This document shows positions 349-10,947 of a stretch of 10,947 nt of DNA, in pieces. Numbering within the stretch: position 1 is the first letter of the stretch; the number at the start of each line of letters is the position of its first letter. Below the pieces are notes generated by a model. The model saw nothing but the letters and a program-made list of their open reading frames with translations, was not told the DNA's origin and did no database searches. This DNA is from a virus (lineage: Duplodnaviria > Heunggongvirae > Uroviricota > Caudoviricetes): the IMG/VR virus record IMGVR_UViG_2648501669_000001; one strand, 5' to 3'. A program made the position numbers and the translations under genes.

Positions 349-1872
349 ATGTTTAATTTTTTCAAACGCAAAAAAGATATGCCCGTGAATCCGGTTAAGA
401 AAATCGGTATTCGCCAACACCGCAAATTATTTGTAGATCGCAAGATTGAAGAATTTACCAAAGACTTACATAAACGCTCTTTGGGATTGGTTGAAAGCGA
501 CCGCATTGAAGGAAGTATGGCGCGTAATGTCATCACTGGCAGCATTAACAGCGCGATTAAGGGGTCCGCATCACGTCTATACAATCAAGGCCGTTATCTT
601 GCGTTAAACACTTCTATTGGCTCCCGTTATTGCCAACACGTTATTGATTCCGTGGTAGGTACTGGCTTACAGCCTCGAACCTTCGTTATGAAAGGGGAAA
701 AGCTGGACGCAACCACTAACACCGCTATTGAGAATGCTTTTTGGCGTTGGGCTAGCTCTCAGAAACGATTCTCGCGCATCGGAAAGATTAACTTCCTTGA
801 ATGCTTAAAGTTGATGGAAAAAGAGCGCGTGATGGGTGGTGATGCGTTTCTGGTACTCCATGAAGATGGTAAGGATCTGCAAGTATCCATTTATGGTGCG
901 GATTGTGTTGATTGGTCAGATCAGCGCACCTTAGATAACGGTAATGTCGTTTACGCTGGCATCGAATATGAAGATGAAAAGCCCGTTGCATATTGGTTTA
1001 GGCGTCGTGACCTGTTTACTCAGTCCTTTACTGGCGAACGTGTACGAATCCCGGCGGAAAGAGTGCTGCATTACTTTATCCCTGGTACAGCCGACGCATT
1101 ACGTGGTATTACTGATTTCTTGCTAATAATCAAAGATATAGCTCATCTTGAAGCGTTCCGCGAGACTGTAATAATCGGTAAGCGCGTGCACGCAAGCAGC
1201 ATGGCCTTTATCACAAGCGATAAAGAAAATCAAGATTCATTTGATGTTGGTGAAGATGACACGGAAAACTATCAACCGCCAACAATGATCACTGACTTCG
1301 AACCGGGTACTATCAATATACTGGAACCGGGGCAAGACGTTAAAACGGTACAATCAACTCAAGGCGGCGATGATTTCGAAAAATTCAATGAAGCAATGCT
1401 GACTTCTATTTCTATGGGTCTGTCTAGCTTTAAACAAGCTCTTACAGGAGATACAAGTTCTATTAACTACTCATCAGCAAAATTCGGTCATAATATTGAA
1501 TCCGCTCGCTTCAAGACGCATCAAGATCGCTTAGTTGATACTGTTATTCTTCCATTATTTGAGGCGTTTTTACGTCACGCGGTAATTAACTCAAAAATCA
1601 ATGTTCGCATGACGCAGATCGATTCTATTTTGGATGCAACGACAATTATTAGACCTCGCGTTACGTCTATTGAACCGATCAAAGATATTCAGAGTGAAGT
1701 TCTGTTAATAGAAAGCGGATTGAAGTCTAAAGCTCAGGTCATTATGGAAATGGGTCAAGATCCGTCTCAGGTCTTTAAAGAAATTGAGGCAGAAAAACAC
1801 ATGCTAAATACATGCGTCGTGAGTGAGGGTGAGACTGAAAAAGAAAAATCTCCTGATACTCAAAATGAATAA
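349..1872 (+). CDS. Phage portal protein (lambda gpB-like family)
   Basis: 507-aa ORF with AAGGA Shine-Dalgarno 7 nt upstream. Size and position (first gene of the head module, directly before the protease-capsid gene) fit a portal. The C-terminal region (LLIESGLKSKAQVIMEMGQDPSQVFKEIEAEK) resembles the lambda gpB C-terminus as I recall it. Confidence 0.8.
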   Translation: MFNFFKRKKDMPVNPVKKIGIRQHRKLFVDRKIEEFTKDLHKRSLGLVESDRIEGSMARNVITGSINSAIKGSASRLYNQGRYLALNTSIGSRYCQHVIDSVVGTGLQPRTFVMKGEKLDATTNTAIENAFWRWASSQKRFSRIGKINFLECLKLMEKERVMGGDAFLVLHEDGKDLQVSIYGADCVDWSDQRTLDNGNVVYAGIEYEDEKPVAYWFRRRDLFTQSFTGERVRIPAERVLHYFIPGTADALRGITDFLLIIKDIAHLEAFRETVIIGKRVHASSMAFITSDKENQDSFDVGEDDTENYQPPTMITDFEPGTINILEPGQDVKTVQSTQGGDDFEKFNEAMLTSISMGLSSFKQALTGDTSSINYSSAKFGHNIESARFKTHQDRLVDTVILPLFEAFLRHAVINSKINVRMTQIDSILDATTIIRPRVTSIEPIKDIQSEVLLIESGLKSKAQVIMEMGQDPSQVFKEIEAEKHMLNTCVVSEGETEKEKSPDTQNE

Positions 1873-1914: not shown

Positions 1915-3969
1915 ATGACAACAAAACAATTCCGTCGTAGTGTTGCGGTAGATACCCCTGATTTTATCGAAGAAAAAGACGAACGAATTATTGAATTGGC
2001 TTTCTCAAGCGAGGCTCCTTATACACGTTATTACATGAATCAGGACGGCGAGCAAGTCGAATTAAAAGAGATTCTCGTACACGATGAATCAGCGGTTGAT
2101 CTATCCGTTTTAAACGAGACTAACGCAAGTCTTCTGTTTAATCACAATCTGGATCTTCATATCGGCAAGATTGTTCCTGGCTCCGCTCGTATTGACGAAG
2201 ACCGTGTAGGTCGTTGCCTTGTCCAATTCTCCAAAGTAGGCCAACTGGCTAATGAATGCTTTGAGAAGGTAAAAGAGGGAACACTTTCACAAGTTAGCGT
2301 CGGTTATAACGTTCTTGATGGCAAAGCCGATTTTAACAAAGGGATCTATTATGTTACACGCTGGCAACCTTTCGAATGCAGTCTTGTAACGTGTGCCGCA
2401 GATCCATTTAATGCGGGTGTTGGACGCTCTCTAAATACAGACAACGAAATGATTGTTTTGGAGGGTGAACAAGTGGAAGACGAAATTAAAGATACTCCGG
2501 TCGAAGAAATTAAACCGGAAGATGAAGAAAAACGTTCCGAAGAAGAGAAAGAGGAACAAGAAAATGAAGAAATTGATTCCGATTCTGGAAATAGTGCTGA
2601 CAGTGGCGAAGATGTGGAAGAACCGCAAGAAGTAACGCCAGAAGAAAAAGAAGAACGTTCCGAAGATGAACCGGAAGAAACAGAAGAACTAAATAAAGAT
2701 ACAGACGAGAACGACGAAACGGAAAATACATCCGAACCAGTCGAAGAAGAAAAGATTGAAGACGAAGAAAAACCGTTTGAACGTTCTCGCGAAGATACCG
2801 CCGAAATTCGTGCTATCGGAAAACATCTAAATATCTCCGAAGACGTGATTGAAGCTGCAATTAAAGATAGTGCCGTGACTATTGAAAATTTTAAAGAAAA
2901 AGCACGCGCACTAAATACTACCGAATCTAAAACTTTTGTTAAAGGAAAAATTACCATGACCGATACCATTAAAACTCTGGAATCCCGTTTCGATCTTAAT
3001 AAAGCTGTACGTGCAATCGCAGAGGGTAAAGCCCTGACTGGCGCAGAAGCTGAATATTCTCAGGAAGAAGCACGTAAAGCCGCAGCGCGTGGTCGTGCGC
3101 AGCGTTCTAACTCCGTATTCATTCCGGCGTCCGCTCTGCGTGCTAGCCAGAACATGGAATCTCTGAAACCAGTAGTTGGTGAAGAAATCCGCCATGATTG
3201 CTTCGTTGATATGATCATGGAACGTTCTATTCTGGGTAAATTGGGTGTGCGTACCATTAACGCAACTGGTCCTGTTTCTCTGCCGTCTCTGACTTCCAGC
3301 AATCTGGAAAACTTCGGTTTTGTTGCAGAAGGTCAATCCGCTGGTGAAGGTACTATTAAGTTTGCAGCGCAGCCGATGACTCTCAAGACTTTTAACGGAA
3401 TTGTTCCTGTAACGCGTCAGGCTGCAATCACACTGCCCAATATTGGCGCTATCGTTGGTGAGCACATGCTGAAACACAGTGCTATCGCTCTGGAAAAAGC
3501 GATTCTGTCCAATGCTGCTAACACTAACGCTCGTGATGGTCTGACTAAGATCCTGACCGACGCTGGCAAAGTTAAACAGATTGATTGGACCTATGCCGAG
3601 TTCCTGAAACTGGTAGCTGAACTGACCGACAAAGGTTATAACGAAGCGGATCTGGCATTTGCTACCCGTGGTGTTGTTAAAGCTGAACTGGCAGCGCAAC
3701 TCAAAGCAGCTAATGTTCCGGGCTTCCTGGTAGAAGGCGATAAACTGGTTAACCGTCCGATCTATGGCTCTGGTGTAGTTGCTCAGGATACCATGCTGTT
3801 TGGTGACTTTAGCTCCCTTGTTGTTGCAGACTTCGGATCGCTGGAACTGGATTGCGACGATACCACAGGTCGCGCGGCTGGCAACCTGTACTTCCGTGTA
3901 TGGGCTGATCTGGATTGGGCTGTTATGGACCATAGCGCACTGACCGTAGTTCAGAAAAAAGTTGACTGA
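1915..3969 (+). CDS. Prohead protease - acidic scaffold/delta linker - HK97-fold major capsid protein fusion
   Basis: 684-aa ORF with AAGGTGA Shine-Dalgarno. The N-terminal ~170 aa look like an HK97-type prohead protease. Residues ~183-300 are a hyper-acidic low-complexity linker (EEKRSEEEKEEQENEE...). The C-terminal ~290 aa are HK97-fold capsid-like (e.g. GDFSSLVVADFGSLELD). It sits immediately after the portal. Confidence 0.8.
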   Translation: MTTKQFRRSVAVDTPDFIEEKDERIIELAFSSEAPYTRYYMNQDGEQVELKEILVHDESAVDLSVLNETNASLLFNHNLDLHIGKIVPGSARIDEDRVGRCLVQFSKVGQLANECFEKVKEGTLSQVSVGYNVLDGKADFNKGIYYVTRWQPFECSLVTCAADPFNAGVGRSLNTDNEMIVLEGEQVEDEIKDTPVEEIKPEDEEKRSEEEKEEQENEEIDSDSGNSADSGEDVEEPQEVTPEEKEERSEDEPEETEELNKDTDENDETENTSEPVEEEKIEDEEKPFERSREDTAEIRAIGKHLNISEDVIEAAIKDSAVTIENFKEKARALNTTESKTFVKGKITMTDTIKTLESRFDLNKAVRAIAEGKALTGAEAEYSQEEARKAAARGRAQRSNSVFIPASALRASQNMESLKPVVGEEIRHDCFVDMIMERSILGKLGVRTINATGPVSLPSLTSSNLENFGFVAEGQSAGEGTIKFAAQPMTLKTFNGIVPVTRQAAITLPNIGAIVGEHMLKHSAIALEKAILSNAANTNARDGLTKILTDAGKVKQIDWTYAEFLKLVAELTDKGYNEADLAFATRGVVKAELAAQLKAANVPGFLVEGDKLVNRPIYGSGVVAQDTMLFGDFSSLVVADFGSLELDCDDTTGRAAGNLYFRVWADLDWAVMDHSALTVVQKKVD

Positions 3970-4103: not shown

Positions 4104-4130
4104 AGCCCTGCCTAGTGCGGGGCTTTTTTG
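4104..4130 (+). terminator. Rho-independent terminator downstream of the capsid gene and its extension
   Basis: GC-rich hairpin agccctgc / CTAGT loop / gcggggct followed by TTTTTT. Confidence 0.6.
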
Positions 4131-4159
4131 TATGTAAATACTCCATAAAGGGGGTAACT

Positions 4160-4450
4160 ATGTTCAAATTATCAGAATCACAATTATCAAGAATGTTTAA
4201 GAGTGCTCCTGTATTTTCGGTGGAAGGTGGTAAATCAATTCGTGCTTATCATGAAATTACTACTACCGACGAATCGGGGGTAATGACAGAAACCGAATTT
4301 CTATTCTGTCGTGAGGGAGACTTAAATCAGGGTGATATTGTCATTGTAGAAAACCAGCGTTTCAAAGTTCAATACGTTAAGCGCAATGGTGATAATACCA
4401 CTGATTGCTTTATTACTCTGGCAGGGGGTACACATGCTCGCTACCGTTAA
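4160..4450 (+). CDS. Small head-tail connector / head completion protein (putative)
   Basis: 97-aa ORF from the internal ATG at 4160, preceded by AAAGGGGG Shine-Dalgarno. The longer ORF-track start at 4115 lies inside the upstream terminator. Size and position (between capsid and tail terminator) fit a connector. No strong motif was recognised. Confidence 0.5.
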   Translation: MFKLSESQLSRMFKSAPVFSVEGGKSIRAYHEITTTDESGVMTETEFLFCREGDLNQGDIVIVENQRFKVQYVKRNGDNTTDCFITLAGGTHARYR

Positions 4451-4856
4451 TAATATGCCTAGACTGAAAATCAAACGCGCCTTGCAAGATATTATCGAAC
4501 AAGATTTAGGTCTGGCTTTAAACGTAGAACAAACTCAGCAAGGTTTTAGTGATGACGTGGTTTGTTGGATTACTGGCATGAATGAGACTTACACTAGGGT
4601 CCGTGGTGGTAATGCAATGCAAGCTGAATGCGTTATCGAAATGCAATTATATTCTCAGATTCATGAAACAAAAATCCATGAGGGTATTTGCCAGATAATC
4701 CAGATTCAGCCGGATAACCCACGTTTTAAAGATTTGGGCTTCTCTATTTCAGATATCACTCCAGTAGCCTCTAATACCGATTATGACGATGATTCTAGTG
4801 ATGGGGGTATCGTTGGGACACTTAGCCTTAAATTTTCTTATCTAGCGCGTTTTTAA
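4434..4856 (+). CDS. Tail terminator protein, lambda gpU-like (putative)
   Basis: 140-aa ORF from ATG 4434 with AGGGGG Shine-Dalgarno, overlapping the previous gene by 17 bp. VCWITGMNETYT...ECVIEMQLY and the acidic C-terminal TDYDDDSSDGG resemble lambda gpU (VAVYLTGAEYT...ELHIEVFL...YDYRRDDDAG) as I recall it. Confidence 0.55.
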   Translation: MLATVNNMPRLKIKRALQDIIEQDLGLALNVEQTQQGFSDDVVCWITGMNETYTRVRGGNAMQAECVIEMQLYSQIHETKIHEGICQIIQIQPDNPRFKDLGFSISDITPVASNTDYDDDSSDGGIVGTLSLKFSYLARF

Positions 4857-4865
4857 GGGGTAATA

Positions 4866-5699
4866 ATGAATATTACACAAGATAACTTAGATATTTTCAC
4901 TGGATCACATGTTGAAGTGTCGATCTCTAACCAGATAGACAATCAGGTCGACTTTTTCGATCCTAGCTTTAGTTCTATGGAGAACATCGCAGCATTCCCT
5001 ACGCTAACCGAATCCACAGAGATAGAAACTCTGGAAGAGTACGATCAGGACGCTACGGGGAAACTTGCTGGTTATCGTAGACTGGAACCGACAACACTCA
5101 CATTAAACCGTGTTCTTGACGATGAACATCAAGCAATGTTGATGAAAGCGGTAGAGGATAAAACACCTTTACGCTTCCGTATGTTCTATGTTGTGAACTC
5201 TGGCTATAGTGCTGCTAACACTGGTTACTATGTCATCTATGACGCTTATGTCACTAGTCACAAAACCCGTGGCGCAGATAACAAAGCTGTAACACTGGAA
5301 TTTAAACTTGAACCAGATGGCGGGATTTTGGCAAGGGGTATTGCTACCGAAGGCCGGATCTTACGTCAGGGTGATTTTGGTATCGGTGCTGGTGTAAATC
5401 CTTTCAGTGGTCCTATTGATAGTGAATCTCTGACAGGAAACCGTTTCGTAACTTACAAGGGAACTGCTAGCACTAACCCTTATGGTGCTGATACATCGTT
5501 AATTCATCTTCAAGCTAATGAGCATGGCGCATGGCAATTAACCTGTAATACTTCTGGCGCACCGCGTTTACGCGTCCGAAATATTCAGGAAAACGGTAAA
5601 TCTGAATGGATTAAAGTCTATTCTACAAACGAGAAACCGACACCTAGCGAAATTGGCGCAGTGGCTAAGACTGACCGGATCGATTTCGGCGAATACTAA
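4866..5699 (+). CDS. Major tail (tube) protein with a C-terminal fibre-like domain
   Basis: 277-aa ORF with AAGGGG Shine-Dalgarno, placed after the gpU-like gene as in the lambda Z-U-V order. The N-terminal ~135 aa are paralogous to ORF 9445-9915. The C-terminal ~70 aa are homologous to an internal segment of the tail fibre (shared KPTP-x-EIGA motif). Confidence 0.6.
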   Translation: MNITQDNLDIFTGSHVEVSISNQIDNQVDFFDPSFSSMENIAAFPTLTESTEIETLEEYDQDATGKLAGYRRLEPTTLTLNRVLDDEHQAMLMKAVEDKTPLRFRMFYVVNSGYSAANTGYYVIYDAYVTSHKTRGADNKAVTLEFKLEPDGGILARGIATEGRILRQGDFGIGAGVNPFSGPIDSESLTGNRFVTYKGTASTNPYGADTSLIHLQANEHGAWQLTCNTSGAPRLRVRNIQENGKSEWIKVYSTNEKPTPSEIGAVAKTDRIDFGEY

Positions 5700-5729
5700 G
5701 GATTCTCCTACCTAAATAAAACATGACGC

Positions 5730-5763
5730 GGGGAGGTTAACGCCTCCCTTATTCCTGTTTTAT
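5730..5763 (+). terminator. Putative intrinsic terminator after the major tail gene
   Basis: Hairpin GGGGAGG / ttaacg / CCTCCC followed by a T-rich tract (ttattcctgtttta). The T-run is interrupted. Confidence 0.45.
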
Positions 5764-5779
5764 AGTGAGGTGATTCTAG

Positions 5780-8700
5780 ATGCAATCAATCCAATTTAAA
5801 CGCACACAAACGGCTGGTAAAAAACCAACGCCGGAACAATTATCACAGGGTGAATTGGCTATTAACCTTGCTGATCACGTTCTGTATACCAAAGATAAAA
5901 ATAACGCAGTAGTTCAAATCTCTGTTTCTCCAGAAAAACACGCTGAACTTAACACGAAAGTAGACCAGAATAAAACTAGCACTGACCGTGTTATTGCTTC
6001 CAACAAACAAGAGGCCGCTAATAATCTGGCTAGTGTTAAAGCTGAACTGAATCAGACTATTACCGCTAAAGACACCGCAACCAATAAGCGCATTGATGCT
6101 ACCAACACCACTGTTAGTAACTTAACCCAGACAGTTACGGCAAATAAAACCGATGCCGACACTAAGATCAATAACCTTACGGGGACCGTATCTGCGAATA
6201 AGACCGCAATTGAAAGAACCGTTGCCGCAAACAAATCTGATGCAGATAGCAAACATGCAGCTTTAACGAAAACGGTCACTGACAATAACACCGCGATTAA
6301 CAACAAGGTTAATACCACTAACACCAACGTTAGCAACTTAACTAAAACTGTTACTGCAAATAAAACCGATGCAGATAACAAAATTTCTAGCTTAACTAGC
6401 ACGGTTGCAGCTAACAAAACAGCGATTGAAAAGGTCGTTTCCGACAACAAGAAAGATGCTGATACTAAAATCAGTAACCTTACTGGCACTGTGAATAGTA
6501 ACCATACCGCTATTAACAACAAGGTAGACCAGAACAAATCATCGACCGATGCCGCAATTACAGCCGCCAACAAGCGAATTGATGGTATTGAAGGTAGTGC
6601 TAACGCAGCATATATCAAGAAGAACACAAAGACCTATCACGGCGCGTATTTGTATAGCAAGACTGGTAACTATCTGGAAGATTCAACCGCGAGAGATCTT
6701 AATTACTTCGGTGCATTCCGTACCAATGGTCAAGATGGACTCATGGATCTAACCCTTAACGTTCCTCACTCTTCCGGTAAAGCGCATGGTCGAGGATTTA
6801 CTTTCCGTTATGCGTCTGGCGGATCTCGTGTTGAAACCTATGGTTTTGATGCTCAGGGACAAAAAGCGTTTAGCTATAAAATGTATCACGAAGGGGATAA
6901 ACCGACTCCTGCTGAAATTGGCGCATATACCAAAGGCGAAATTGATAAGATGTTTATTAAAAATGTCACAATGTCTGTTCCTTCTGGTAGTGAATCCCGT
7001 GCTTATTTCAAGATTGCTACGGCTACGATCCCACAAAATGGTCGTATGGTAATGCTTCGTATCTTCGGTGGTAATGGTTATAACGTTAACTCCTATGATC
7101 AGGTTGATTTCCTTGAAATTGTTATCCGTTCCGGTAACAATAACCCGAAAGGCGTTAGTATTGCTGCTTATCGTCGAAACTCTTTGAACGTTCATCAAGT
7201 ATTTGCGGTTAATACTTCCGGTGATAACTACGACATTTACGTTAACTACGGTCGTTATACTGATAACGTTATTGTCGAATATGGTAAGACTAGCGGTGTT
7301 TCACTGACTGTTCATGACACCCCAGCTATGACTAACGTTAAGCCGTCTACTGGTGTTACAGATGGACGTGTTATTACAATGTTCAACACCGAAAACAAGG
7401 CCGGAACGTTGATGTTTGATAATAACGGACAGGGTACATATGATATTGTCAGTTTGAATAACGATTCAGGTACTGGTAAAAAATATCTTCGTAAATTCCG
7501 TAGTAAAGCCGCAGAAACAATCTGGCATGAAACTGTTCAAGGTAACGTTTATCGTTTAGCGACTGGTACTACCGATTCTAGCGAAGTTCTACGAATCACT
7601 GGTCGCACCATGTTTACTGGTAAAGGTGTATTTGATGCCGGACAAAACGTTCTTAGATTAGAGCGTCCTAGTAATCAATCAAACTATATTGAATGGCAAG
7701 ACCGCCGCAATGGTGCTAATGCTCGTCAAGGTTGGATTGGTTTTGGTAGTGCTGAAACAAATAACTTCCAATGGTATAGCGATCAGGGGAAAAACTCATT
7801 TCAGCTAGAAGCTAACGGTCAATGCTCTATTACCACTGGTGCAACTAAAATTGTATATACAAACGGCGAGTATGTAGCTGCTAACTCAAATGCATTCCGT
7901 ATGATTTACGGCAATTATGGTGCATTTTGGCGCAATGACTCCGCAAAAGTTTATCTTCTGTCAACGGCTGAAAACGATAAGTTTGGTGGTTGGAATACTT
8001 ATCGACCATTCATTTATGATCTGACTTCCGGTAACGTTCAATTAGGCGGTGATGGTAACGAAGATGCATTAACGTTAGAACGTGCAAGCCGTGCCGCTCG
8101 TTTTAGTAATGACGTTTACATTAAGAAAGGTTTTTTGACTTTCGACGCTGGGCGTTCTGGATCGCGTGATTATATTCGATTTAATCATTGGGGCGATAGC
8201 AACAACGCCCGTGATAACGTTTTATACCTCGAAGACAGCAAAGGTCGCCATTTCAGCACCGAACGTAATATGGCTACAGGTGGACTAAAGGCATATTTCT
8301 TAGGTGATCTTGAAGTTGCTGGTCAAATGAGATGGGGTAAGAATACCGGACAATCTAGCTTCAATATTCGTGCATGGGGTAATGATACTCGTAAACAAGT
8401 ATTAGAATGCGCAGATGAAAGCGGCTGGCATTTCTACACACAGCGTGCTGGCGGTCCTGGTACTACCGCAATCGAGTTTAGCGTAAACGGTAAAATTAAC
8501 GCTCCCCAACTGTCTATTAGTCAGGATGCAACCATTCCTAAGTTTAATAGCGGTTTTGGTGTTGGTGTTGCTAACGGATTGGGTGGAAATTCTATTGTTT
8601 TAGGCGATAGTGATACTGGATTTAAACAAAACGGTGATGGTGTCCTTGATACCTACGCTAATAACGTTAATGTTGTTCGTCACACATCTGGCGGCATTAC

Positions 8701-9388
8701 CTTTAACCGTCGTGTTGTTGTTGCTAACAAAAATGGTTTAGGTTATTCCGATATCTCTGATGTAACTCGTGACCGTGCTCCATTCTTGGTTAACATGGAT
8801 AGTATTAAGGGGTCTGGTGCATATTTCCCTATTATCGCTGGCTATAGTAACTTAGGTGATGTTGGTTATCGTCAGTCCTTCGAGTTTGGTTGGACGGGTA
8901 GCGGTTCGACTCACGGTTGGCGTACTGGTATTATCCGTATGCGTGGCGATAACGCCAACGGGCAGCAAGCACGCTGGGAATTTACTATGGATGGTGACTT
9001 TACCGCAGGTCGTAACGGTAGCTTTAACGATGTTTACATTCGCTCTGACTCCCGTTTGAAGATTAACAAGGAAGAATTACAGGACGGCGCATTAGAGAAA
9101 GTAAACTCCCTGAAAGTCTACACCTACGATAAAGTTAAATCTCTTTCAGATGACACAGTGATTAAACGCGAAGTAGGTATTATTGCTCAGGATCTGGAAG
9201 AAGTGTTGCCGGAAGCAGTAGGTATTCAATCCACCGAAGATCCAGAACAACCGGAAGCAATTAAGACTATTTCTAACTCTGCTGTTAATGCCTTGATTAT
9301 TAAAGCTATTCAGGAAATGGACGCCAAATATCAAGCTAAGATTGAAGCATTGACTAAAGAGATTGCCGAACTCAAAGCAACTAAATAA
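5780..9388 (+). CDS. Tail fibre protein with a repetitive shaft and a C-terminal intramolecular chaperone (peptidase S74-like) domain
   Basis: 1202-aa ORF with GAGGTGA Shine-Dalgarno. The N-terminus has a tail-fibre anchor-like motif (KKPTPEQLSQGELAINL). Tandem T/N/K-rich repeats form the shaft. GLGGNSIVLGDSDTGFKQNGDGVLD and ADESGWHFYTQR resemble the conserved distal region of P2 gpH-type fibres as I recall them. The C-terminus has an SDSRLK (S-D-x-R-x-K) autoprocessing motif followed by a coiled-coil-like tail. Confidence 0.85.
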   Translation: MQSIQFKRTQTAGKKPTPEQLSQGELAINLADHVLYTKDKNNAVVQISVSPEKHAELNTKVDQNKTSTDRVIASNKQEAANNLASVKAELNQTITAKDTATNKRIDATNTTVSNLTQTVTANKTDADTKINNLTGTVSANKTAIERTVAANKSDADSKHAALTKTVTDNNTAINNKVNTTNTNVSNLTKTVTANKTDADNKISSLTSTVAANKTAIEKVVSDNKKDADTKISNLTGTVNSNHTAINNKVDQNKSSTDAAITAANKRIDGIEGSANAAYIKKNTKTYHGAYLYSKTGNYLEDSTARDLNYFGAFRTNGQDGLMDLTLNVPHSSGKAHGRGFTFRYASGGSRVETYGFDAQGQKAFSYKMYHEGDKPTPAEIGAYTKGEIDKMFIKNVTMSVPSGSESRAYFKIATATIPQNGRMVMLRIFGGNGYNVNSYDQVDFLEIVIRSGNNNPKGVSIAAYRRNSLNVHQVFAVNTSGDNYDIYVNYGRYTDNVIVEYGKTSGVSLTVHDTPAMTNVKPSTGVTDGRVITMFNTENKAGTLMFDNNGQGTYDIVSLNNDSGTGKKYLRKFRSKAAETIWHETVQGNVYRLATGTTDSSEVLRITGRTMFTGKGVFDAGQNVLRLERPSNQSNYIEWQDRRNGANARQGWIGFGSAETNNFQWYSDQGKNSFQLEANGQCSITTGATKIVYTNGEYVAANSNAFRMIYGNYGAFWRNDSAKVYLLSTAENDKFGGWNTYRPFIYDLTSGNVQLGGDGNEDALTLERASRAARFSNDVYIKKGFLTFDAGRSGSRDYIRFNHWGDSNNARDNVLYLEDSKGRHFSTERNMATGGLKAYFLGDLEVAGQMRWGKNTGQSSFNIRAWGNDTRKQVLECADESGWHFYTQRAGGPGTTAIEFSVNGKINAPQLSISQDATIPKFNSGFGVGVANGLGGNSIVLGDSDTGFKQNGDGVLDTYANNVNVVRHTSGGITFNRRVVVANKNGLGYSDISDVTRDRAPFLVNMDSIKGSGAYFPIIAGYSNLGDVGYRQSFEFGWTGSGSTHGWRTGIIRMRGDNANGQQARWEFTMDGDFTAGRNGSFNDVYIRSDSRLKINKEELQDGALEKVNSLKVYTYDKVKSLSDDTVIKREVGIIAQDLEEVLPEAVGIQSTEDPEQPEAIKTISNSAVNALIIKAIQEMDAKYQAKIEALTKEIAELKATK
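6101..6530 (+). repeat. Tandem in-frame coding repeat in the fibre shaft (two ~72-aa units built from ~12-aa sub-repeats)
   Basis: Unit A (TNTTVSNLTQTVTANKTDADTKINNLTGTVSANKTAIER...TAINNKV) and unit B (TTNTNVSNLTKTVTANKTDADNKISSLTSTVAANKTAIEK...TAINNKV). The antisense ORF 6052-6627 is a shadow of this repeat. Confidence 0.8.
9044..9388 (+). other. Predicted C-terminal intramolecular chaperone domain of the fibre, released by autoproteolysis at Ser ~1089
   Basis: SDSRLK at 9044-9061 matches the S-D-x-R-x-K Ser/Lys dyad pattern of tail-spike and fibre chaperone domains (endosialidase, T5 pb1) as I recall it. The domain is ~113 aa, a typical size. Confidence 0.55.
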
Positions 9389-9414: not shown

Positions 9415-9444
9415 TAATAACAATTTTAATTAAGGGGTAATTCT

Positions 9445-9915
9445 ATGTCTCAATTTAATGATATTTTTACTGGTGGTCTGGTAAGTCTGTTCTATCACGC
9501 TGATACCACTAACACCGCTCTCGATCACTCCGGTTACGAAGAAATTAAAGAGTGTGCTGGTTTTCCTGAAACTGGTATCGAGCGCGGTACTGTAGAAGTT
9601 AAATCCTTCTCTTCTCAGTATAACCGTAAGCTGGTAGGGAAACTGAACGTTCCTGATCTGACTCTGACCGTTAACTACATCCCAGGCGATGCGGTGCACG
9701 AGAAGCTCATTAAAGCTGCCGAAGACGGTACTCGAATTCAGATTAAGATTGAATACTATGTTGATGCAGCAAAACAGACTGGTATTCGCACCGCTTTCAA
9801 CGGCTTTATTTCTAAAGTTGCTATGAACGGTGGCGATGAAGAAGTTGTAACCAAAGAGTTTACCTTCGCGGTGGACGGAAAGCCGATCAAACAGGAAATC
9901 TTCACTGCCGGATGA
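9445..9915 (+). CDS. Tail tube protein paralog (tube domain only)
   Basis: 156-aa ORF with AAGGGG Shine-Dalgarno. It is homologous to the N-terminal domain of ORF 4866-5699 (MSQFNDIFTG vs DNLDIFTG; GKLNVPDLTLTVNYIPGDAVHEKLIKAAEDGT vs GYRRLEPTTLTLNRVLDDEHQAMLMKAVEDKT). Confidence 0.6.
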   Translation: MSQFNDIFTGGLVSLFYHADTTNTALDHSGYEEIKECAGFPETGIERGTVEVKSFSSQYNRKLVGKLNVPDLTLTVNYIPGDAVHEKLIKAAEDGTRIQIKIEYYVDAAKQTGIRTAFNGFISKVAMNGGDEEVVTKEFTFAVDGKPIKQEIFTAG

Positions 9916-10045: not shown

Positions 10046-10075
10046 AAGCCCTGCCTTAATGGTGGGGCTTTTTTA
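10046..10075 (+). terminator. Rho-independent terminator downstream of the tube paralog and its extension
   Basis: Hairpin aagccctgcc / ttaat / ggtggggctt followed by TTTTTT. It is homologous in position and sequence to the terminator at 4104-4130. Confidence 0.55.
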
Positions 10076-10596: not shown

Positions 10597-10610
10597 ATTC
10601 TAAATAAACA

Positions 10611-10850
10611 GGTGATGCTGCCAACTTACTGATTTAGTGTATGATGGTGTTTTTGAGGTGCTCCAGTGGCTTCTGTTTCTATCAGCTGTCCCTCCTGTTC
10701 AGCTACTGACGGGGTGGTGCGTAACGGCAAAAGCACCGCCGGACATCAGCGCTATCTCTGCTCTCACTGCCGTAAAACATGGCAACTGCAGTTCACTTAC
10801 ACCGCTTCTCAACCCGGTACGCACCAGAAAATCATTGATATGGCCATGAC
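10611..10850 (+). mobile_element. Truncated IS1 copy (terminal inverted repeat through the 5' part of insA)
   Basis: Matches the canonical IS1 sequence from base 1 (GGTGATGCTGCCAACTTACTGAT) for ~239 bp as recalled. Mismatches begin at ~10850 and similarity is lost by ~10865. Confidence 0.9.
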
Positions 10851-10884
10851 TGGAGTTGGAAGCCTGCATCTTATACACATCTGA
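10666..10884 (+). pseudogene. insA: Truncated/hybrid insA: first ~61 aa identical to IS1 InsA, then an unrelated 11-aa tail
   Basis: [61 protein letters not shown] matches the InsA N-terminus including the CPSC...CSHC zinc-finger. The C-terminal [11 protein letters not shown] diverges from the InsA helix-turn-helix region. Confidence 0.7.
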
Positions 10885-10947
10885 CGCTCACGACGATCGA
10901 TCTAGAACAAACAACACAGACTCACACCCGCAATCAACAGAAATACA

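Follow-up and report, generated by a model that had tools for sequence, protein, structure and literature searches.

We have analyzed a gene, ORF277 (an open reading frame, ORF, of 277 codons), whose product joins a tail-tube fold to a C-terminal end of the T4 gp36 type, and which is followed by a tail-fiber gene whose product begins in the manner of T4 gp37. Both genes lie in a 10,947-nucleotide stretch of DNA (IMG/VR virus record IMGVR_UViG_2648501669_000001), hereafter the window, which covers the late region of an E. coli prophage, a lambda-like siphophage. ORF277 is likely to be a second copy of this phage's main tail-tube protein and not that protein itself. On balance, we favor the reading that ORF277 is a tube-fold ring protein to which a T4-type distal fiber would be attached through a gp36/gp37-type joint. 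We give roughly even chances to the broader proposal that this is an undescribed side-fiber mount on a flexible tail, in which a ring of a tube-protein paralogue within the stack carries either a covalent fiber or, as here, a gp36-type connector that docks a gp37-type fiber. That arrangement would place a jointed T-even distal half-fiber on a lambda-like tail. Searches of the literature turned up no account of a tube-protein paralogue or of a tube-fold fiber anchor. The "two major tail proteins" of JBD30 were considered as a precedent and set aside, because the phrase refers to two subunits and not to two genes.

ORF277 and the fiber encoded downstream

The observations that bear on this reading are of folds, homologies, terminal motifs and gene order. 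The N-terminal domain of ORF277 was modeled by AlphaFold2 (AF2) with a predicted local distance difference test (pLDDT) score of 80-90 over residues 15-162 and has the beta-sandwich fold of tail tubes, inter-ring hairpin included. Foldseek matched it to the lambda tube protein (8k36_A) with an expect value (E) of 5.4e-7 and a template modeling (TM) score of 0.66; other structural matches were to 80alpha, monocin and Hcp, and those in BFVD were all to tube proteins. ORF277 matches the major tail proteins of phrog_158 (E = 5.9e-8) and has no Pfam or NCBIfam match. A second tube-fold protein, ORF156, is encoded beyond the fiber gene and matches phrog_158 with an E of 7e-22, as well as the Pfam families Phage_TTP_11 (E = 1e-6, score 29.0 versus a gathering threshold of 28.4) and TTP_12 (E = 1.8e-5). 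ORF277 and ORF156 are 29% identical across the whole tube domain with small gaps only (E = 1e-13), and are therefore paralogues. The sequences that precede their start codons (window positions 4845-4865 and 9425-9444, respectively) are nearly identical as well (TTAAGGGGTAAT), which could be a trace of the duplication behind the two tube-fold genes. Sequence searches of the PDB with the ORF277 family profile, ORF156, T4 gp36 and the family of the 140-residue protein encoded just upstream of ORF277 returned nothing useful.

The remainder of ORF277 is a linker, a fiber-type module and a short tail. In the glycine-rich linker, G163, G172, G174, G176, G182, D185, G191, N192, R193, N204 and P205 are invariant in 42 sequences, with G169 and D170 at least 90% conserved, and the linker is conserved in all tube-fold/fiber fusion proteins. 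Strands were predicted by AF2 at residues 210-218, 221-228 and 235-240 of the following module, with a pLDDT of about 50-65. Residues 188-252 may resemble "knob"-type fiber domains. An earlier description of this DNA, made from its sequence alone and referred to here as the preliminary description, had placed a fiber-type extension on a tube fold, and to this extent it was borne out: residues 199-270 match tail-fiber PHROGs with E values of 3e-4 to 3.5e-3. The likeness to gp36 is more specific. In BLASTP, residues 207-277 aligned with residues 426-496 of Phi1 gp36 at 33% identity (E = 2e-5), and P0081, a 482-residue relative of ORF277, aligned with the same protein over 283 columns (E = 1e-17); both alignments reach the final residue of both partners. 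The gp36 proteins of T4, VR20, Roth23, K65, ZZ1 and Phi1 all end in [IVLQE]D[FY]G.[YF], a pattern into which the RIDFGEY end of ORF277 fits. The N-terminus of gp36 (MADLKVGST.GGS.IW.QGN...), which joins gp35/gp34, was not found in ORF277, where the tube fold stands in its place.

The fiber begins with MQSIQFKRTQTAGKKPTPEQLSQGELAINLADHVLYTKDKNN, which is 34% identical to residues 4-64 of T4 gp37 (E = 6e-15) and is similar to the start of Phi1 gp37. This gp37-type N-terminal motif heads gp37 of six T-even-type phages and every fiber gene downstream of an ORF277-type gene. The two genes of the window are 80 bp apart and thus adjacent in the order gp36, then gp37. In T4, gp36 binds with its C-terminal end to the N-terminal end of gp37, and gp36 trimers are built on gp37's N-terminal region (PMC9603124). 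Because the end of ORF277 is gp36-like, the start of the adjoining fiber is gp37-like and the joint between such ends is known in T4, the window holds both halves of a gp36/gp37-type joint. The tail TDRIDFGEY is proposed as a putative docking peptide for the fiber N-terminus. The "gp36" of Aeromonas phage Aes508 was also considered as evidence on the joint, but it is a single-chain gp36-gp37 fusion and hence uninformative.

Beyond its N-terminus, the fiber is a mosaic with RB49-like gene 37, with 74-81% DNA identity over about 1.6-1.8 kb and a match to phrog_1699 (E = 1.9e-128), and its S74 chaperone matches the C-terminal one of Phi1 gp37. Residues ~60-260 (window 5960-6560) contain many degenerate, Asn/Thr/Lys-rich repeats of the type NKTDADTKINNLTGTVSANKTAIE, and the corresponding DNA has a negative GC skew and an AT skew of 0.32. 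Tandem Repeats Finder detected nothing at the DNA level in this repetitive N-terminal third.

The related loci examined were 61 from IMG/VR together with three others (L002-L004). The order paralogue, fiber, tube gene is found in 52 of them; the other loci are truncated contigs or stop just before the third gene. In the 52 loci the paralogue has 277-699 residues, the fiber has 685-1302 residues and a gp37-type N-terminus, and the tube gene encodes 156-267 residues; the gap between paralogue and fiber is 10-83 bp, and identity to ORF277 extends down to 34%. Homologues of 275-281 residues occur in E. coli, Shigella, Salmonella, Providencia, Edwardsiella and Proteus. Close homologues have an invariant linker (GDFGIGAG...GNRFV...NP) and an invariant end, D.IDFG.[YF], and both the length and the sequence of the 277-residue form are kept between E. 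coli and Proteus, at 50-95% identity. In distant relatives the tube domain, linker, first module and end are all retained and extra fiber modules are inserted, so that the total length is 341 to 583 residues in IMG/VR contigs and 698 residues in the copy of Escherichia phage DCP80. P0081, for example, has three modules that are each closed by ...Y..KPTPA.IGA, as well as GDTMTG repeats. The two terminal motifs, a ...D[FYL]G.. end and a downstream ..FKR...G..P....GE.a.N..D..lytK start, are paired in six T-even-type phages, the window, the distant relative L002 and DCP80. In several E. coli relatives, the match to the window covers ORF277 and only the first ~55 fiber codons, up to nucleotides 5943-5949, beyond which the fiber diverges. 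A conserved ORF277 and fiber start with an exchanged remainder is the usual pattern of a conserved attachment end on an exchangeable fiber.

An exhaustive HMMER search of 1.84 billion representatives returned 296 proteins at E <= 1e-3, and 149 of the best 150 were analyzed. Tube domain and linker occur together in 91 of these 149 representatives. Of the 91, 68 have at least 700 residues and are single-chain fibers with a tube-fold N-terminus, all but two of which (66 of 68) lack a DFG-type tail; 14 representatives end in such a tail. Three long members that were scanned against Pfam bear a tip of their own, either an S74 chaperone or Phage_tail_C_2. Named members of the family come from Serratia, Kluyvera, Pantoea, Leclercia and Yersinia and are annotated as "tail fiber protein" or hypothetical, and the family, clustered at 50% identity, has 90 clusters or more in Enterobacterales prophages. 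The tube-fold N-terminus is, as far as sequence can tell, a recurrent fiber anchor in this prophage group, of which the window has a split version. Among 50,697 deposited phage genomes, a single record has the arrangement, that of DCP80 (PQ671644.1, nucleotides 1-22000, our L004), which is classed as a T4-like Gaprivervirus of 141 kb. It begins with a complete siphophage-type module of gpA-type terminase, portal, capsid, 698-residue tube-fold fiber, fiber, tube protein and tape measure, and looks like a chimeric assembly or a mixed sample.

ORF277 had been taken for the major tail protein in the preliminary description, an assignment that is probably wrong, given the better match of ORF156, the decoration found in L002, the position of the genes and a terminator-like hairpin. 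In L002, the ORF156 orthologue has a Hoc/Ig-like (immunoglobulin-like) C-terminal domain. In L002 and L003, the ORF156-type gene is immediately followed by those for the tail chaperone and the tape measure; in the intact relative L001 and in the window it is followed by a gp38-like gene, which in L001 stands between it and the chaperone and tape-measure genes. ORF277 is separated from the chaperone and tape-measure genes by the fiber gene and ORF156 throughout L001-L003, and so is not placed as a major-tube gene would be. A strong terminator-like hairpin lies 3' of ORF156. ORF156 is the likelier major tube protein. We regard ORF277 as an extra tube-fold protein because the phage group already has a terminator, a distal tail protein, chaperones and a tape measure. 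A role as tail terminator was rejected, since the adjoining upstream 140-residue ORF has the gpU fold, and a role as distal tail protein is unlikely, since the intact relative encodes a separate distal tail protein (phrog_1302) after the tape measure.

The preliminary description had put the likeness between ORF277 and an internal segment of the fiber down to a shared domain. The likeness is real, but it extends over far fewer residues than claimed. Both segments are present, that of ORF277 at residues 207-270 (nucleotides 5484-5675) and that of the fiber at residues ~317-387 (nucleotides 6728-6940), some 10 nucleotides from the ~6716-6930 first given. BLASTP aligned ORF277 214-268 with fiber 330-385 at 32% identity (E = 2e-4 in a single comparison), and the Smith-Waterman score of 73 was reached in 0 of 2000 shuffles (mean 35.5, standard deviation 4.8). 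With the motif Y..KPTPxEIGA removed, the score was 25 and was reached in 375 of 2000 shuffles. A profile of the ORF277 C-terminal family was also compared, using hhalign, with a profile of the fiber module built from the window, RB49-like gp37, Aeromonas gp36, and Felixounavirus and Mu fibers. Only 24 columns aligned (ORF277 245-268 with fiber 362-385; probability 95.9%, E = 5e-9), and the probability was 0.15% without the motif. Motif-less hidden Markov models (HMMs) of the two modules matched no overlapping segment in about 500 related proteins. Because the signal vanishes once the motif is removed, and none was found outside its 24 residues by shuffling, hhalign or the motif-less HMMs, the shared element is a junction motif and not a 65-residue domain. 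The common ~24 residues consist of the last beta-strand and W.KVY..(E/D)KPTPxEIGA..K. No relation was detectable between ORF277 207-244 and the fiber module at 289-361; the latter module (residues 290-361) was found by tblastn in 240 phage records, and its motif-less HMM matches fibers only. A word-indexed homologue search with the fiber segment returned 2 fragments only. A second candidate match, between ORF277 205-245 and fiber 865-905, was not significant (E = 0.18). The related motif reported at the fiber N-terminus, KKPTPEQLSQGELA, does occur at residues 14-27, with no significant match to ORF277 (E = 3.0); the KKPTP there was rejected as a third copy of the module and is part of the gp37 N-terminal domain.

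The junction motif recurs in many tail fibers, at module boundaries; in Phi1 it occurs three times in gp36, once near the C-terminus of gp34 and once in gp37. In the repeats of T4 gp34 and gp12, a conserved Ser/Thr-Pro caps a short helix, and a three-helix bundle forms on the trimer axis (PMC5537660). A short helix was predicted by AF2 at ORF277 260-263, and KPTPxEIGA may, by analogy, be the counterpart of the short axial helix in these T4 repeats. Among E. coli alleles of ORF277, at least four shuffled versions of the last ~25 residues were found, ending in ...EKPTPSEIGAVAKTDRIDFGEY, ...ERPTAQDVGAVSITARVDFGEY, ...EKPTAAELEVVSIHDRIDFGYY and ...EKPTPAEIEAVSIHDRIDFGEY, and the fiber N-terminus is nearly unchanged across these alleles. 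The shuffled ends suggest recombination at the junction motif.

Proposed mechanism and alternative explanations

ORF277 would be a duplicate of the tail-tube protein in which the tube fold (residues 1-162) is fused to a glycine-rich linker, a fiber-type module and a gp36-like tail (...EKPTPSEIGAVAKTDRIDFGEY). From the observations above we infer its incorporation into the virion, the contact at the joint, trimerization, and the number and position of rings. The tube-fold domain would be built into the stacked rings of the tail tube, in the simplest case as a single homohexameric ring. The C-terminal arms would then trimerize into short gp36-like stubs, each of which would dock one 1202-residue fiber trimer via a gp36/gp37-type joint, and the bulk of the tube would be built by ORF156.

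Several points weigh against this proposal. The presence of ORF277 in particles and its contact with the fiber are predictions from sequence and an AF2 model, and the model has low confidence for residues 164-277 (pLDDT 31-67), so that the predicted fold of this part is tentative. The Pfam family Phage_T4_gp36 (PF03903) does not match ORF277 itself; it was found in 2 of 18 longer relatives, with a best E of 1.4e-7. No solved structure of a gp36-gp37 joint was found in a PDB sequence search with T4 gp36, and the role assigned to the DFG tail therefore derives from its conservation only. The ribosome-binding contexts of ORF277 and ORF156 are the nearly identical sequences given above, and expression signals therefore do not mark ORF277 as a minor species. 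Classes of tail do go with classes of fiber start (DFGEY with MQSIQFKRT, DLGTF mostly with MAKIKFKR, DLGYL with MAKIQMRRTKTAG and LDAGxF with MANNKV.HYRT), a correlation that is confounded by shared ancestry. Finally, a hexameric ring has six arms, which would suit trimeric fibers only if there were two of them per ring, and this stoichiometry is a guess.

The strongest alternative, although an unlikely one, is that ORF277 serves as a minor subunit of the tube, either in several rings of its own or mixed in among ORF156 subunits, such that fibers or stubs project at several heights. Co-polymerization is conceivable for two proteins of the same fold and 29% identity, their translation signals are similar, and the sequence does not fix the position of ORF277. 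However, such fiber modules are trimeric in the solved structures of T4 gp34 (PMC5537660), and isolated ORF277 subunits could not trimerize. Literature searches found no precedent for fibers mounted in this way.

We consider improbable the function suggested in the preliminary description: ORF277 as the major tail-tube protein, with a C-terminal module that decorates the entire tube in the manner of the Ig-like domains of lambda gpV and binds carbohydrate reversibly. It is true that the tube fold is complete, that the C-terminal extension is positioned as the gpV Ig domain is, and that the ribosome-binding site of ORF277 is as good as that of ORF156. Yet ORF156, the better tube match, is encoded in every related locus that is long enough, and the Ig/Hoc-like decoration seen in L002 sits on the ORF156-type protein. 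In relatives of ORF277 the extension reaches up to 540 fiber residues and always has a gp36-type tail before a gp37-type gene. No Ig-type family match was found for ORF277 in Pfam, NCBIfam or PHROG, and an extension of the Ig/FN3 type known from tube decorations is unlikely, subject to the low confidence of its AF2 model. Carbohydrate binding itself was not supported: Pfam and NCBIfam gave no carbohydrate-binding family, and what is conserved is a connector-type tail with a fiber gene immediately downstream.

Little credence can be given to the idea of a mosaic scar, in which KPTPxEIGA is a conserved recombination linker and the C-terminus of ORF277 a stranded fiber fragment without an attachment role. 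The recurrence of the motif at module boundaries of many fibers, the shuffled last ~25 residues of the E. coli variants and the clear mosaicism of the fiber with RB49-like gp37 at the DNA level would all fit. Against this, the 277-residue form has been kept at 50-95% identity between E. coli and Proteus, with D273, G275 and the linker glycines invariant, and the terminal motif persists at 34-40% identity despite a changing length of the extension, which indicates selection and not decay. Least probable of all is a non-virion assembly factor that holds or trimerizes the fiber N-terminus and then leaves, since, although assembly proteins are frequently encoded beside fiber genes, no chaperone role is known for a full tube-fold domain, and in ~68 of the 149 representatives the tube domain is covalently N-terminal to a complete fiber with an S74 chaperone or other tip and must therefore stay with the fiber there.

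If the ring-and-joint proposal is true, siphophages have a third way to fix trimeric side fibers on a six-fold tail, beside the Stf and p132/LtfC collars, and the gp36/gp37 joint is a portable plug-and-socket used beyond the T-even phages. Conserved plug-and-socket ends would enable the swapping of fibers for re-targeting the host range of phages or tailocins. The element is found widely among prophages of E. coli and Salmonella and related ones, and several hundred annotations as "hypothetical" or "phage tail" would be corrected.

Features of the window and neighboring genes

The window is interrupted by IS1 at both ends, and the features located in it are collected in Table 1. The prophage tail module breaks off behind the gp38-like gene, and the window copy therefore has none of the chaperone, tape-measure and tip genes that are present in L001. 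In the latter (E. coli 39EVA, NZ_CP138416, 1.222-1.247 Mb), the downstream genes encode a tail assembly chaperone, a tape measure, a distal tail protein, hub proteins and a tail tip protein.

Table 1. Positions of the features located in the window (AF2, AlphaFold2; all positions are those of the window)
Feature	Position	Strand	Remarks
IS1 sequence	1-160 and 10610-10947		InsA ORF at 10666-10884
Lambda-family portal	349-1872	+	
Prohead protease fused to major capsid protein	1915-3969	+	
FII-like head-tail joining protein	ends at 4450	+	
Tail terminator, 140 residues, lambda gpU-type fold	4434-4856	+	AF2 mean pLDDT 76
ORF277, 277 residues	4866-5699	+	
ORF277 residues 1-162, tail-tube fold domain	4866-5351	+	paralogue of ORF156
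ORF277 residues 163-206, glycine-rich linker (LRxGDFGIGAG...G.ID...L.GNRFV...NP)	5352-5483	+	AF2 pLDDT <50
ORF277 residues 207-244, beta-strand part of fiber-type module	5484-5597	+	aligns with Phi1 gp36 426-463
ORF277 residues 245-268, junction motif (S)EWIKVYSTNEKPTPSEIGAVAK	5598-5669	+	sole part truly common with the fiber segment
ORF277 residues 269-277, C-terminal tail TDRIDFGEY, gp36 type	5670-5696	+	D273 and G275 invariant (42 homologues)
Fiber, 1202 residues	5780-9388	+	
Fiber residues 1-47, gp37-type N-terminal domain (IQFKRT..G.KP....GELAINL.D..LYTKD)	5780-5920	+	contains KKPTPEQLSQGELA
Fiber residues 290-361, module common to RB49-like gp37, Aeromonas gp36, Felixounavirus and Mu fibers	6647-6862	+	unrelated in sequence to ORF277
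Fiber residues 362-385, junction motif (Q)KAFSYKMYHEGDKPTPAEIGAYTK	6863-6934	+	hhalign template columns 74-97; BLASTP
Fiber residues 637-746, Gp34_trimer domain	7688-8017	+	Pfam PF21446, E 1.1e-27; PDB T4 gp34 4uxe/5nxf, E ~2e-13
Fiber residues 1089-1147, Peptidase_S74 intramolecular chaperone	9044-9220	+	Pfam PF13884, E 7.1e-14
ORF156, lambda-like tail tube protein, probable major tube subunit	9445-9915	+	
Terminator-like hairpin with T-run after ORF156	10046-10070	+	10-bp stem with 6 GC pairs, then TTTTTATT
gp38_N-like ORF, 168 residues	10090-10596	+	Gp38_N adhesin domain, Pfam 2.1e-15; phrog_1121 2e-34

The prohead protease (S78) and the major capsid protein form a single 684-residue ORF, with a very acidic, Glu/Asp/Ser-rich stretch of ~110 residues as the linker between them (window about 2400-2800, AT skew 0.40), and a terminator-like hairpin follows the capsid gene at 4104-4124. 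For the two genes that lie between those of the capsid and ORF277, the list of ORFs has longer versions that overlap (4115-4450, 111 residues; 4386-4856, 156 residues). Their RefSeq relatives have 96 and 140 residues (window 4160-4450 and 4434-4856), and these shorter starts fit the conserved parts of the orthologues. In the PDB, Foldseek matched the 140-residue protein to lambda gpU (3fzb, E = 1.6e-5, 21% identity) and further to T5 p142, the T1 terminator and the NF5 neck. The gp38-like gene is set apart from the fiber gene by the tube gene and the strong terminator-like hairpin at 10046-10070, and is missing from the distant relative L002. A gp38-like adhesin partner is puzzling, as the fiber carries its own S74 chaperone.

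Comparison with known systems

The system most similar to that of the window is the distal joint of the T-even fibers (T4, RB49/Phi1). In its C-terminal module and tail, ORF277 is a homologue of gp36, the connector gene precedes the fiber gene in both, and the tails read ..IDFGEY in ORF277, ..IDFGTF in Phi1 and ..QDFGYY in T4. The difference lies at the other end of the connector, where T4 gp36 joins gp35/gp34 at the knee and ORF277 has a tail-tube fold. No equivalent of gp34 or gp35 was found among the genes examined here, and the phage is a lambda-like siphophage, not a myophage. The fiber would thus hang on the tail tube and not on a baseplate by way of a proximal half-fiber.

With the Ig-like decoration of lambda gpV, ORF277 shares a tube-fold domain and a C-terminal extension projecting from the tube surface. 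T5 pb6 and SPP1 gp17.1* are also C-terminally decorated tube proteins. In decoration of the gpV type, however, the decorated protein is the major tube subunit and a monomeric Ig/FN3 domain sits on every ring, whereas ORF277 is a second paralogue whose extension is a fiber or connector module of variable length, and the Ig-like decoration, where it occurs (L002), is on the other tube protein.

Side fibers are mounted on known siphophage tails by collars, such as the dodecameric N-terminal side-fiber collar of Ur-lambda Stf (PMC12617516) and those of T5 p132 and DT57C LtfC (PMC13455828). Like the proposed ORF277 ring, these collars fix trimeric side fibers to a six-fold or three-fold tail. They are Ig-like or beta-sheet 12-mers around the outside of the junction between tube and distal tail protein, whereas the ORF277 anchor would be a tube subunit within the stack. 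In siphophages of Gram-positive bacteria, Dit forms hexameric rings of the tube fold with extensions that hold trimeric receptor-binding proteins. These rings are the nearest concept to the mount proposed here. The phage group of the window differs in having a separate distal tail protein after the tape measure (phrog_1302), and ORF277 differs from Dit in being much closer to the tube protein and in the location of its gene between the terminator and tube genes.

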